Part shown: positions 19,235 to 33,140 of the stretch, one piece after another
How the letters are laid out: the number at the start of each line of letters is the position of its first letter
Numbering within the stretch: the stretch's first letter is position 1
Assembly: GCA_964016885.1 (NCBI GenBank)
Contig: OZ024745.1
Location: 109,430,001 to 109,494,000, forward strand
Reading direction: 5' to 3'
DNA: 64,000 bases
Source of the DNA: Eledone cirrhosa
Lineage: Eukaryota
Notes under the pieces: generated by a model
What the model saw: only the letters and a program-made list of their open reading frames with translations
The model's database searches: none
Told to the model about the DNA's origin: nothing
Position numbers and translations under genes: made by a program

Positions 19235-20095
19235 TATGTGTGTGTTTGTGTCTGTTCATGTGCACACGTGTGAAGTGCGTGGTTTACTGGTTAAGGTTTT
19301 CGGGTTATGTTTGTAAGGTTGATAGTTCAATTTATAGGCCAGGTAGAACACTGTGTGTGTACGTGTGTGTGTGTGTGTGTGTGTGTGTGTATGTGTATTT
19401 ACATATATATATATAAAGTAGTTGTGTAGGTGACATGACAAAAAGCACCCAGTTGCCACTGTAAAGAGAGAGAGAGAGTGAGAGAGAGAGATAGAGATAG
19501 AGAGAGAGAGAGCATATGTAAAGACATGAAGCTTAATGGTTGGAGTTTTGGGCTCATATTTGTGAGGTTGATATTTCAATTTACAGAGCAGGCAAAGGTG
19601 AGAGAGAGAGAGAGAGAGAGAGAGAGAGAGAGAGAGAAAGCAGCAACAAGGGTGTCTTCTTGACGACACTCATTTGTCACAAGATTGCATAGTACAGGTC
19701 CAGCACGCTAGGCCTTCAAGAGAATACACACACTCATGCACACACACACACATATATATATATATTTTGTTTACATTGGATAGTTTACCTAATAGATAGA
19801 TGCAGTCAATCTGATTTCCAGATCTTGATGCAATAAGCGAAAGCACTCAACGTTATGTGTATCTTCCATCAGGTATGTCATATCTCATGATTGGTGCAGG
19901 AATGGAGTTAAATACTTCAATAAACATACAGGAAGGCTGAATTCCAATATCTTCCTTTAATGTTGTACAATTACATAATACATATTTCTATGAACAGCTT
20001 ACATCAAGAACAAGCCGGGTCCACGATTGTAAGCTCAATGCACTTACCACTAAGTCATGTGCCTTCATATATATATTATATATATCATTTTTATT

Positions 20096-20350
20096 TCATC
20101 ATTTTATGTCCGCTTTTCCATGCTTGCAAGGGTGGGACGGGAACTGATTCTGGCTTGATTTCTACAGCTGGATGCCCTTCCTAACACCAACCTCATTTAC
20201 AGTGAGTGCTGGGTGCTTTTTTGCCGTGGCACCTCCACGACCACTTTGTAGTGGAATGATAGGGACCCCAGTCCTATCATCTCATTTCTATGGCTGAGTA
20301 AACTGGAGCAATGTGAAATAAAGTGTCTTGCTCAAGGAAACAACACATCA
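20096..20350 (-). mobile_element. SINE family A, head truncated
   Basis: Reverse complement of the adjacent copy at 20379-20718. Confidence 0.9.
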
Positions 20351-20378
20351 TATATATATACATCATATATATATATAT

Positions 20379-20718
20379 GGAGGCACATGGCTTAGTGTTT
20401 AGAGCATTGGCCTTGCAATCGAAAGGTTGTGAGTTCAATTCTCAGACCGGGTGATGTGTTGTTTCCTTGAGCAAGACACTTTATTTCAAATTGCTCCAAT
20501 TTACTCAGCTGTAGAAATGAGATGATAGAGAATGGGGTGCCTATCATTCCACTACAAAGTGGTCGTGGAGGTGCCACGGAAAAAAACACCCAGCACTCAC
20601 TGTAAATGAAGGTGGTGTTAGGAAGGGCATCCAGCTGTAGAAATCAAGCCAGAATCAGTTCCCGTCCCACCCTTGCAAGCAGGGAAAAGTGGACGTAAAA
20701 TGATGATGATGATGATGA
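20379..20718 (+). mobile_element. SINE family A, full length (tRNA head, core, RTE-type tail, (GAT)n)
   Basis: A-box TGGCTTAGTG, B-box GAGTTCAATTC; tail GGTGTTAGGAAGGGCATCCAGCTGTAGAAA...GGACGTAAAA(TGA)n shared with the RTE 3' end at 32760-32913. Confidence 0.9.
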
Positions 20719-20886
20719 TATATATATATATATATATATATATATATATAAGCAATGAGTTATTTAATTTGTTGATTATTCAACAAATTTAGTTTATAAC
20801 AGATTAGAAGTACTCAACAGTTTTTCTTCTGGAGTATAATATCAATGATATTAAATAAATGGAAACTATCTTTATAAAACCATATT

Positions 20887-20947
20887 TATTTTATTATATA
20901 TATTTCAAGGGTACCAAAGTTTTGGTACGCGCTCATCAGATAAAATA
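20887..20947 (-). ncRNA. Minimal type-I hammerhead ribozyme motif
   Basis: TATTTTAT-CTGATGA-GCGCGTACCAAAACTTTGGTACCCTT-GAAA-T-ATAT-A-TA^-ATAAAATA; 8-bp stem I. Confidence 0.8.
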
Positions 20948-21063
20948 CAAAAGTTGGTTTACAGATAGTGACATATTCAGACAAGAACTTAATGTTGTAT
21001 TAAATAGAACTCACAACATTAAGTTCTTGTCTGAATATGTCACTATCTGTAAACCAACTTTTG

Positions 21064-29514: not shown

Positions 29515-29852
29515 TCATCATCATCATCATCATCATTTTACGTCCGCTTTCCCTGCTTGCAAGGGTGGGACGGGAACTGATTCTGGCTTGATTTCTACAG
29601 CTGGATGCCCTTCCTAACACCAACCTCATTTACAGTGAGTGCTGGGTGCTTTTTTTCCGTGGCACCTCCACGACCACTTTGCAGTGGAATGATAGGGACC
29701 CCAGTCCCTATCATCTCATTTCTACAGCTGAGTAAACTGGAGAATGTGAAATAAAGTGTCTTGCTCAAGGAAACAACACATCACCCAGTCTGAGAATTGA
29801 ACTCACAATCTTTCGATTGCAAGGCCAATGCTCTAACCACTAAGCCATGTCA
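29515..29852 (-). mobile_element. SINE family A, full length
   Basis: Near-identical reverse complement of 45420-45745. Confidence 0.9.
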
Positions 29853-30040
29853 CCCGTTCCATATAACCATGTCCATTACAAGCTGAGGATCTGCTAAGGT
29901 GAAACAATTGTTCTCTGTATGGTGAACTAACTGTTGTGTAACCACTTCTACCTAACTCGTCCCATGGACTGAGTGCTCTACCACTACGGATATTACCTTC
30001 CAGTGTTCTACCACTATATATATATATATATATATATATA

Positions 30041-30946
30041 CGAGGTGGGTCAGAAAAGTTCCAGGACTGATGTCACAAAAGATTTATTTCAAACCCAAAC
30101 TTCACACTAAGAGTTTTCTCCTTCAAAGTAATCCCCCTGGAGTATGTAACTGTAATCTTAGCTCTCTGCAGCAATCAAACTTTTTTCTTCATAATTTTAT
30201 ATACATGTCTTCTGTTTCAGGTCATCAAGCAATGAAGACAGAGCAACGAACAAACTTGAAAACTCTGTCAGAAGCACTGGGATTGCTGCAGCAAGTGTAT
30301 GGAGATGAGACGATGTCACGCTCATGTGTTTTTGAGTGGTGCAAGAGGTTTAAAGAAGGACACGAGGACGTGGAAGATGACCCCAGGAGTGGAAGGCCCT
30401 CAACAACTAGGACTGAGGTCAACGTTGAGCACGTCAGGCAGATGGTGCGTAGCGATCGTCAGCTGACTGTTCGACTGGTGGCAAATGAGCTGGGCATGAA
30501 TCGGGACAGCGTCTGGAAGATTCTCACTGAAGATTTGGATATGCGGAAAGTCTGCGCGAAGATGGTGCCAAAACTGCTGAACAATGACCAGAAGGGTTGA
30601 CGCATGCAAGTGTGCCAGGACATCCTCGAGAGTCTTGAAACCGAACCAGACTTGCTAGGGACAGTCATCACCGGTGATGAGTCATGGATCTTCGAGTATG
30701 ACCTGGAAGGGACCCGTTTTGAAGACGTGGACGACATAAAAAAGGCCATGATGACGGAACTGCGGAGGATCCTGGAAGAATCCTTCCAGGAGTGCATGCA
30801 AGCGTGGCAGAAAAGGATGGAAAAATGCATTAGACTCCAGGGGATTACTTTGAAGGAGAAAACTATTAGTGTGAAGTTTGGGTTTGAAACAAATCTTTTG
30901 TGACATCAGTCCTGGCACTTTTCTGCCCCCCCCCCCCCCCCCCCCG
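30041..30946 (+). mobile_element. Mariner element, internally deleted, TIRs of about 100 bp, TA TSD
   Basis: TA|CGAGG...CG|TA; protein [55 protein letters not shown] joined directly to [13 protein letters not shown]. Confidence 0.93.
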
Positions 30947-31767
30947 TATATATATATACTTGCTATTAAGTTAGACATGATCTGGGCCTTAAAGTTAAAT
31001 ATAAATAATATATATATATATATATATATACACATATATATGTATATATATATATATACATATATATATATATACATATATATATATATACATATATATA
31101 TATATATATATATATATATATATATATGCATACATATATATATATATATATATACATATATATATATATACATATATATACATACATACATATACATACA
31201 TACATATATATACATACATACATATACATACATATATATATATATATATATATATATATATATATATAGAGAGAGAGAGAGAGAGAGAGAGAGAGAGAGA
31301 GAGAGAGAGAGAGAGACAGAGAGAGAGGATGGGGTGATTAAGAGGAGTTATAATTAAAGAAGTAAACATGAAAAAATGAAGAATGAAGAGAAGAAAAGAA
31401 AGAAATACTTTTTGAAATAAGGGGATATAAAACAAATGAACAGCGAGAGGGGGTGGGGGGGGGCAGACAGAGAGAGGGTGAGGGAGAGAGAAAAGGAGCT
31501 AGAGAGAGAAAGACAGAGAGACAGAGATAAATAAAAATAAGGAGAAAGATGGAGTTAAGAGGAGAGAGATATATAAAGTGAAATATAAAGAAAAAGATCT
31601 GGAATAAGAAGTGGGACGATGGATATATATGAAGTTGGAGAAACTGAGGGGAGGAAAGTAAGTCAAATCAAACAGGACAGACAAATAAAAAACACAAAAA
31701 AAAACAAAATGAGGAGAGAGAGATAATACATACATATTAATATATATGTGTATATATATATATATAT

Positions 31768-32913
31768 GAGTGTAGGAAAGGCGTAGGTAGAAATTCCATT
31801 TTGTGTCCCAAATGCAAAGTTTGGGTGCATAAAAGATGTAGTGGGATCACAGGTAAGCTAACTAAGAACATAGATTTTACATGTGGCCGGTGCTCTGGGG
31901 ATATAAGTAGCAGCAAGTGCCCACAAAATACTAGCTCTTTCAACTGCGCAGAGGGTTCTATAGAAATAGTGGACAGCTTCCGTTACCTGGGTGACAAAAT
32001 CAGCAGTGGGGGAGGGTGCTCTGAAAGTACAGTAGCTAGAGTCAGAACTGGGTGGAAAAAGTTCAGAGAGCTTATACCACTATTAGCCGCTAAAGGGTTC
32101 TCCCTAAAAATAAAAGGCAGGCTGTACGATGCCTGCATACGAACAGCAATGTTGCATGGCAGTGAGACCTGGGCATTGTGTGCAGAGGATATACGCAGAC
32201 TAGAGAGAAACGAAGCTTGCATGCTCCGCTGGATGTGTAATAGTAATATACGTGAACGACAAAGCATAAACGAACTAAGGAAAAAATTAGAAATAAGAGG
32301 GATCAGATGTTGTTTACTAGAGAGAAGGCTACGTTGGTATGGTCACGTGATGCGCATGAAGGATGATAGCTGTATAAGAAAGTGCAGGGCAATAAAGATA
32401 GACGGTAGCCACGGAATAGGCAGACCCAGAAAAACCTGGGACGAGCTGATAAACACCGACCTCACACACTTACACCTCACCAAGACAATGTCACTGGACC
32501 GAGACCTTTGGCGGTACTCAGTAATAGAGAAGACCCGCCTTGCCAGTAGGCATCTCTAACAAAATACACCCCGTCCCACCACCACCAACCCCACCCCATC
32601 CACACCGCCCGTTCTATGTAAAGTTATGTTGGTGCCGCGCCATCCAGGCCGAAACAAATGAGATCGTGTAGGTGTCACGACAAAAAAACACACAGTCCAC
32701 GCTGTAATGTGGCCGTGTAGGCAACACGGTAAAAACCTCCCAGACCCACACTGTAAATGTGGTTGGTGTTAGGAAGGGCATCCAACTGTAGAAAACCTGC
32801 CAGACAGTCCTATGCGAGCAAGAAAATCACTCTTGCCTCAAGTGGGACTACCCCCGTCCAAACCCATGCAAGCGTGGAACACGGACGTTAAACGTTGATG
32901 ATGATGATGATGA
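31768..32913 (+). mobile_element. RTE LINE, 5'-truncated; open ORF2 C-terminus with PHD-like Cys cluster and complete 3' UTR ending in (GAT)n
   Basis: CRKGVGRNSILCPKCKVWVHKRCSG..CGRC, VDSFRYLGD, AMLHGSETW, RRLRWYGHVMR, GRPRKTW; stop at 32559. Confidence 0.93.
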
Positions 32914-32930
32914 TATATATATATATATAT

Positions 32931-33140
32931 AACGAAGGAAATGTGATAAGGAACCAGATGGACCATAACGCACCAAAGTACTCAATACTTAGGGTAGTAG
33001 AGTGGGTAATAGGAACGAGTAGGACCCGACAGCTGAGCTCAAGCCGTTTTGACGGCTAATTCTGGACTAAAATATATATATTAGTCCAGAATTAGCCGTC
33101 GAAACGGCTGGAGCTCAGCCGTCGGGGATTTACCCGTTCC
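32931..33140. mobile_element. Inverted pair of Neptune pLTR 3' pieces (- 32931-33070; + 33081-33140)
   Basis: Both begin at TTAGTCCAGAATTAGCCGTC; the + copy has perfect stem III GAAACGGCT-GGAGCTC-AGCCGTC^GGGG. Confidence 0.85.

Follow-up and report, generated by a model that had tools for sequence, protein, structure and literature searches.

We describe a small bulged stem-loop at the ends of Hydra-clade Penelope-like elements (PLEs) in a 64,000 nt stretch of the genome of Eledone cirrhosa (GenBank assembly GCA_964016885.1, contig OZ024745.1, positions 109,430,001–109,494,000 of the forward strand; hereafter the window, with coordinates counted from its first letter). An initial annotation of the window had reported a shared box, TTGAGTRC, near the (TA)n junctions of element ends and had tied it to Neptune machinery. 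Comparison of the sequences indicates that this box is the 3′ arm of a small conserved bulged stem-loop that is, so far, specific to Hydra-clade PLEs. We hold with high confidence that the hairpin covaries, that it is duplicated at a spacing of 63–67 nt and that element copies end 3–6 nt 5′ of either hairpin. The hairpin is considered a real cis structure of a known clade and probably a previously unlisted one.

A conserved and covarying stem-loop

All ten words of the initial annotation were found as written at their coordinates, and at seven of them the word completes a bulged hairpin, in which an ACTY 12–17 nt upstream of GAGT pairs with it. The layout is a 4-bp RCWC/GWGY lower stem, a 2-nt bulge and a covarying upper stem of 2–4 bp whose sequence differs from family to family, followed by RCT. 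The remaining three sites (19841, 22261 and 43145) are partial or doubtful. A structure descriptor found an eighth full hairpin, absent from the original list, at 29955–29977 downstream of a hammerhead core.

Covariation was assessed on 17 non-redundant hairpins, five from the window and 12 from the foreign loci described below. In the lower stem 67 of 68 cells were paired, and the exchanges are compensatory (A-U/G-C and U-A/A-U): the basal pair is A-U in the window and G-C elsewhere, and U-A changes to A-U in two cases. The first upper-stem pair was present in all 17 hairpins as three pair types, and the first three upper-stem positions were Watson–Crick in 44 of 51 cells compared to 19.2 by permutation (29 of 36 compared to 13.3 for the non-window hairpins alone). 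C at +2 and T at +3 after the stem were invariant (17/17), loop length ranged from 3 to 16 nt, and flanking sequence could not be aligned between hairpins. Because the loops vary, MAFFT alone misaligned the set, and pair counts were taken from anchored positions and a model-fitted alignment. In the latter, which has 14 matches and contains one false match to a short interspersed element (SINE), 98.9% of cells were paired, against 14–60% when the pairing partner was slid.

A palindrome in double-stranded DNA, or a remnant of a duplicated hammerhead stem III, kept by descent with no role in end formation, is a very unlikely explanation of the motif. ACTC/GAGT is often stem III in Hydra hammerheads, and a core-like word lies 21 nt upstream of the 43145 site. 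However, none of the 17 hairpins has GAA immediately 5′, the upper stem covaries while loops and flanks diverge, and most copies already have a complete hammerhead upstream. Stem III is thereby largely ruled out for the 17 hairpins and the 43145 site is ambiguous. At this degenerate site (43131–43153, + strand, within 43099–43235; 14.4 bits, E 0.7) the hairpin is not the lowest-energy fold, and the site could alternatively be a decayed hammerhead stem III.

Recovery in foreign loci and published consensus sequences

Bacterial genome contigs were scanned with five homologues, yielding 13 loci (L001–L013) from 45 candidate stretches. Animal-type Hydra retrotransposons occur in these loci along with hammerheads and (TA)n tracts, and the most likely source of the loci is animal host DNA mis-binned into bacterial assemblies. 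A covariance model trained on the eight window hairpins only was used to search them with E up to 10. Of its 21 matches, the top seven, and 11 in total, are hairpins; all 11 lie downstream of Hydra-type hammerheads, and the other ten are unassigned.

A position test blind to pairing found the 3′ half of the motif 65–83 nt downstream of nine of the 24 hammerhead cores in these loci (expected 0.93), compared to 0/24 upstream and 2/24 on the reverse strand. Among the 15 cores that lack the 3′ half, 11 meet a TA run within 68 nt, one meets a contig end and three continue boxless. For L005, which is among those 11, a hairpin lies just beyond.

The initial annotation had suggested that the box be sought in PLE consensus sequences, and the hairpin is present in the published Hydra consensuses that run past the short end. 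File S7 of Craig et al. (2021, PMC8557442) contains six Hydra consensus sequences. By eye, four of these extend past the short end and all four carry a hairpin, two of them perfect, one mismatched and one with a 1-bp upper stem; the other two stop earlier. The Hydra-1_Ajap consensus starts with two perfect hairpin copies. Exact octopus-type words gave 15 matches in the covered supplement and none in Hydra ends, because the consensuses carry variants such as GAGC. A second word search gave 18 matches, of which four fall in Hydra ends; Naiad or Chlamys sequences account for the remaining 14, most of them within apparent coding regions (PMC8557442).

Several observations count against the structural reading. 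The hairpins share descent and were chosen partly by eye for their pairing, which makes permutation p-values optimistic. The window-only model missed four foreign hairpin copies seen by eye, and five copies of the SINE-like family of 20099–20699 score 12–20 bits with the hairpin model. The lower stem of hairpin 1 in L006 is broken and gives no fold. Sense and antisense fold energies are alike, and the strand is not settled by folding energy.

The shared word and its distance to (TA)n tracts

The box was described as lying about 48–76 nt before the (TA)n junction. It does face the tract, at 46–83 nt and at no fixed distance: measured in element sense, the next (TA)n lies 77 nt from the box at 19841, 59 nt at 20808, 75 nt at 22261, 46 nt at 22366 and 32976, 55 nt at 25801, 52 nt at 26576, 61 nt at 26734 and 27064, and 83 nt at 43145, where an inner short TA run lies at 30 nt. 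The claim that the box is downstream of the hammerhead holds. The element ends were also called otherwise dissimilar, which is fair since only two of the 28 pairs of tails beyond the box align above chance (20808/27064 and 22261/43145, p=0.003 each), the other 26 showing no such alignment.

Enrichment near (TA)n over shuffled controls is evident in the raw count and only marginal once related flanks are merged. TTGAGTRC faces the tract in ten of 80 flanks (expected 0.29; reverse strand, 2/80), a count that takes in sister copies and a motif picked post hoc. After merging, the word occurs in five of 44 groups, one of which (25685) is without a hairpin. In shuffled flanks the best GC-containing 8-mer reached five groups in 20 of 200 runs, and any 8-mer did so in 153 of 200. 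The window alone therefore does not establish a linear word, and the linear word was rejected as the unit of signal.

These counts bear on chance recurrence of a short word near abundant (TA)n, inflated by sister copies, in a window that is microsatellite-rich animal sequence with 30% masked. In addition to the shuffles, exact TTGAGTRC occurs without a hairpin at four sites (10668, 25685, 47311 and 60531), around which no related element context was found, and a loose hairpin descriptor has a background of 3.6 in the window and 5.2 in the foreign loci, compared to nine and 17 found. Recovery of held-out hairpins at the predicted position in the foreign loci and published consensus sequences nevertheless makes chance a highly improbable explanation overall; it is refuted for the seven full hairpins and could still account for 19841, 22261 and 43145.

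The coding element belongs to the Hydra clade

The box was attributed to Neptune. By its endonuclease motifs, the coding element beside it is a Hydra-clade PLE. This element, family A (22322–24553, − strand), is 5′-truncated and decayed, was recognized by tblastn to P0001 and by motifs, and has (TA)n at its end (22308–22321). Its broken open reading frame (ORF; 23223–24553, − strand), with stops and frameshifts, matches P0001 in five pieces (combined E 5e-62) and encodes a reverse transcriptase (RT) and, C-terminal to it, an endonuclease of the GIY-YIG type. Pfam gave no significant match on three ORF pieces that exclude the N-terminal RT fragment, with GIY-YIG only at E 0.18.

The endonuclease has a CxCX5C linker (frame 2 translation) in place of CX2-5CxxC. 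Around its conserved E and N it has CxxC and CxH, the latter spanning a frameshift, and the CxxC belonging to CCHH is missing from the GIY-YIG core. CxCX5C, CxxC/CxH and the absence of the CCHH cysteines define the Hydra clade (PMC8557442), so these motifs place the element in Hydra rather than Neptune, for which the CX2-5CxxC linker and CCHH would be expected. The N-terminal motifs RWK and DKT were lost with the 5′ truncation in the window copy; among its homologues, P0001 has DKT, and P0005 has both. A hammerhead in the pseudo-long terminal repeat (pLTR) and the (TA)n insertion of family A were read by eye. The hammerhead (22414–22509, − strand) is type I with the U3-A8 core variant described previously (PMC4209133), and its cut site is predicted to lie about 25 nt 5′ of the hairpin; Rfam gave no hammerhead match at 22300–22600. 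The ORF-less families B–E are placed in the Hydra clade provisionally, by hairpin, hammerhead and end geometry only.

A search of PDB sequences found nothing below E 0.26. The predicted fold of a full-length relative (pLDDT 95) had TERT as best match (E 2.3e-9, TM 0.31), a resemblance that says nothing direct on hairpin binding. In foreign locus L010, two elements with Neptune-type motifs and their own hammerheads (1200–2340 and 4900–5740) share (TA)n tracts with Hydra copies. No box was found at the two L010 ends with Neptune-type endonuclease motifs in the 56 nt and ~95 nt examined, which is a weak control.

Twin hairpins, insertion ends and the tail

All four foreign copies that read through the short end (L002, L006, L008 and L009) carry two hairpins, with spacings of 63, 65, 65 and 67 nt. 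Both hairpins sit between the hammerhead and the start codon, and hairpin 2 begins 29–48 nt before the first ATG in each copy. In a complete unit the hammerhead is followed by TAT site 1 and hairpin 1, then by a spacer, TAT site 2 and hairpin 2, and last by the ATG.

When short and long copies were compared, the last shared base lay 3–6 nt 5′ of a hairpin in all eight comparable families. Offsets before hairpin 1 were 5, 3, 4 and 4 nt in window families A–D and 6 and 5 nt in the L004 families, and those before hairpin 2 were 4 nt in both L002 and L008. These offsets were read by eye from the junctions; an automatic aligner gave −1 to 6, plus 25 for one diverged comparator, and its scatter arises because the alignment runs on into the TA tract. 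Of the 17 hairpins, 13 have a TAT that begins at −9 to −6, compared to a background of 1.6 elsewhere upstream.

The proposal of a fixed geometry is thus retained on the 5′ side of the hairpin, at 3–6 nt, and abandoned on the 3′ side, at 46–83 nt. As insertions end 3–6 nt 5′ of a hairpin, the distance from box to (TA)n is the length of the tail (range 35–83 nt), and a fixed distance was rejected as the signal. Tailed window copies most likely end just before an uncopied hairpin 2, as judged from the foreign loci. An L010 fragment is cut off inside the 5′ arm of hairpin 1.

The initial annotation regarded the short elements as mini-elements tied to Neptune machinery. The link to PLE machinery is supported; the link to Neptune is not, and a separate non-autonomous class is not needed. 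The inverted pairs of L004, which have no ORF, end in the same way as copies in L007 and L010 that are linked to one, and the simplest explanation is therefore plain 5′ truncation. The window mini-elements would then be 5′-truncated insertions, although some may be truly non-autonomous.

Models of end formation

The proposed cis signal for end definition is upheld for (TA)n-inserting PLEs, in the form of a hairpin instead of a linear word and in Hydra instead of Neptune. A covarying structure at a fixed distance from the element end, as is characteristic of an RT-recognition stem-loop, is found here by sequence comparison. We lean slightly towards the hairpin positioning the element's RT for priming. 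The RT-endonuclease protein would bind the hairpin in read-through, uncleaved or circular RNA and bring the UAU immediately 5′ of the hairpin into the active site, where the 3′ end of the nicked (TA)n target would pair with the UAU and prime cDNA synthesis. Priming at site 1 would give a tail-less end with hairpin 1 left uncopied, while priming at site 2 would copy hairpin 1 and give the tailed end originally noticed. The Penelope tail would be the distance between two protein-binding hairpins, and the ORF-less inverted pairs would be 5′-truncated insertions by the same machinery. Priming by RT fits the Poseidon element of Anolis carolinensis, in which RT starts at both tail ends and mainly uses unprocessed RNA as template (Frangieh et al. 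2024, PMC11167929). It also fits the TERT-like predicted fold of the full-length relative.

Other data are less easily accommodated by priming. Four of the 17 hairpins have no TAT at −9 to −6, and no hairpin 2 is present anywhere in the window. Priming alone offers no explanation for a full-length copy in L008 whose 5′ end begins with the base of hairpin 1. In the text of the Poseidon study that was covered, priming needs no target homology and the stem-loop is unlike the Hydra hairpin (PMC11167929).

The main alternative, which we consider unlikely, is that the hairpin acts in single-stranded element DNA that is cut a few bases 5′ by the GIY-YIG endonuclease, whereby tandems would be resolved into ends with and without a tail. 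The GIY-YIG nuclease SsnA binds a hairpin in single-stranded DNA, needs a cytosine just past the palindrome and cuts a few nucleotides upstream (PMC11893778), and the C two bases past the Hydra stem is invariant. One cut would account for both 3′ ends and for the 5′ start at the hairpin base in L008 and the Hydra-1_Ajap consensus, TAT is also target-like, and Craig et al. (2021, PMC8557442) ascribed the tail to endonuclease resolution. Against this, the tail ends coincide with the start sites of RT in the one Penelope-like system that has been purified (PMC11167929). SsnA is distant, bacterial and stand-alone, and its likeness to the Hydra endonuclease is an analogy.

A role in the 5′ untranslated region (UTR), either in transcription start or in translation control, for example by the element's own protein near the start codon, with ends falling nearby only via the TAT sites, appears quite improbable. 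It is consistent with the proximity of hairpin 2 to the first ATG in the read-through copies, with full-length 5′ ends that start at a hairpin and with the presence of promoters in pLTRs. It does not predict two hairpins each with its own end site at a 3–6 nt offset, and may be an additional role.

Priming and cutting may also be combined, although we offer this only tentatively. The two hairpins could serve as molecular rulers about 65 nt apart, with one protein or a spanning dimer setting every end, the 3′ by priming and the 5′ by stopping or cutting. Tail, inverted arms and 5′ start would follow from one uncopied signal, which the telomerase-like RT might recognize in RNA and the GIY-YIG domain in single-stranded DNA.

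Comparison with known systems

RT-bound RNA structures set the start of copying in the 3′ stem-loops of long interspersed elements (LINEs) and SINEs, the R2 3′ UTR, telomerase RNA and hepadnavirus epsilon. The LINE and R2 signals are copied into the insertion, single and near the RNA 3′ end, whereas the end-setting Hydra hairpin is proposed to be uncopied and is present twice.

The hammerheads, (TA)n targeting and tails of Hydra elements have already been published (PMC8557442). The window elements share with that description the C-terminal GIY-YIG with CxCX5C/CxxC/CxH, the pLTR hammerhead, (TA)n, inverted 5′-truncated arms and an optional tail. They differ in that tails here are ~65–90 nt compared to the 30–40 bp quoted for the clade, and the window family is, by eye, unlike the Hydra-1_Obim consensus. 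The covered main and supplement text has no match for 'hairpin' or 'stem-loop' (PMC8557442).

In Poseidon, RT starts at two internal stem-loop sites matching the tail ends, and both systems have two ends that define a tail, a stem-loop downstream of the hammerhead and an AT-rich target. Both Poseidon sites belong to a single AC-rich stem-loop within the ORF, and target homology is not required (PMC11167929), while Hydra has two sequence-conserved hairpins before the ATG, each with an end just 5′ and TAT microhomology. The SsnA/NTS system resembles the Hydra case in that a GIY-YIG nuclease reads hairpin structure and sequence and cuts a few bases 5′; it is bacterial, has no RT and acts on single-stranded DNA only, and the comparison is one of analogy, not membership (PMC11893778). 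The subterminal hairpins of IS200/IS605 were compared via the discussion in the same paper.

Metazoan non-LTR retrozymes (PMC7229834; bioRxiv 10.64898/2026.07.22.740005) are likewise small, hammerhead-bearing, protein-free and pLTR-related. They form direct tandem arrays, each repeat with a type I hammerhead, and no such array is present in the window, where the short elements either form inverted pairs, joined head to head, or stand alone as ends in (TA)n; this candidate was rejected. No relevant Rfam family matches the hairpin, and among 150 of the 239 rows of the whole-window result only microRNA-family matches appear. The hairpin was not found in the literature searched or in Rfam.

Element ends and other repeats in the window

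Family A is represented by three hairpins: that of the coding element (22367–22393, − strand; box 22366), one with a lower-stem G-U pair (26558–26584, +; box 26576) in a 3′ fragment at 26495–26629, and one (32977–33003, −; box 32976) in the long arm of the inverted pair 32932–33140, whose short arm stops 5 nt before the hairpin position. The family B inverted pair (20751–21167) has a hairpin in its long arm (20809–20835, −; box 20808), a short arm that stops 3 nt before the hairpin position, and hammerhead cores at 20939(−) and 21072(+). The family C pair (25748–26167) is similarly arranged, with a hairpin at 25802–25829 (−; box 25801), a short arm stopping 4 nt before the hairpin position and cores at 25934(−) and 26070(+). 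Family D comprises a copy at 26675–26971 with a hairpin at 26735–26757 (−; box 26734) and a short arm (core 26873(+)) that stops 4 nt before the hairpin position, and a copy at 27005–27264 with a hairpin at 27065–27087 (−; box 27064) and a core at 27191(−).

The eighth hairpin (29955–29977, +) has a 1-nt bulge and belongs to a hammerhead-bearing end at ~29851–30014 with its core at 29883. The box at 22261 lies in a tail-only fragment (22188–22307, −) with the 3′ half of the motif only, the lower-stem 5′ arm being absent at the junction; its tail is related to that of 43145. The 19841 site (19766–19908, −) is a doubtful member with the 3′ half, a candidate 5′ arm ~55 nt upstream and no clear hammerhead. 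Neither 19841 nor 22261 was recovered when the hairpin covariance model was run on the window.

Unrelated element ends follow in succession at 22148–25033 and 25516–27279 with a (TA)n tract between each, as expected for repeated insertion into one microsatellite. Upstream of the Hydra ORF, 24551–24957 contains an 84-nt duplication and short TG-rich pieces; a second piece, at 25544–25722 between TA tracts, contains the hairpin-less TTGAGTGC at 25685. Both may resemble Helitron-related DINE/HINE elements. Two further units between TA tracts have no box: a short one at 34883–35038 that contains an inverted repeat and, at 34962, a hammerhead-like core, and one at 43779–44116 with an apparent hammerhead 3′ half ~18 nt before the tract. 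A 410-bp repeat (34426–34835 and 49727–50136, 97% identity) has an unbulged ACTC/GAGT hairpin in its (TA)n-side end.

Other repeats include a SINE-like repeat at 20099–20699 in two head-to-head copies (94–95% identical) and an element at 30041–30946 that lies between TA runs, carries inverted ends of 93 bp (96%) and has a broken ORF that presumably resembles mariner transposase. At 31744–32559 and 43309–43739 we note the C-terminal portion of a non-LTR RT, which has a PHD finger, and after it a repeat whose 285-bp end recurs with 99.6% identity. A 112-bp tandem repeat at 63192–63680 (4.4 copies, 98%) derives from part of the repeat at 32689–32810. Among the foreign loci, L011 has three tRNA-like copies within a tandem repeat at 843–1795, downstream of a Hydra fragment.

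Implications

Among mobile elements, PLEs are the nearest relatives of telomerase. One element only has been run in vitro, and features of the PLE cycle were termed undefined by Craig et al. (2021, PMC8557442). A 25-nt hairpin kept across several animal phyla, with element ends a few fixed bases away, would open the origin of the tail to mutational test, and the geometry of hairpin and end may separate the RT model from the endonuclease model. The hairpin may also serve as a marker for ORF-less Hydra ends that annotation misses, and published consensus sequences that halt at the tail-less end would leave out the hairpin signal.

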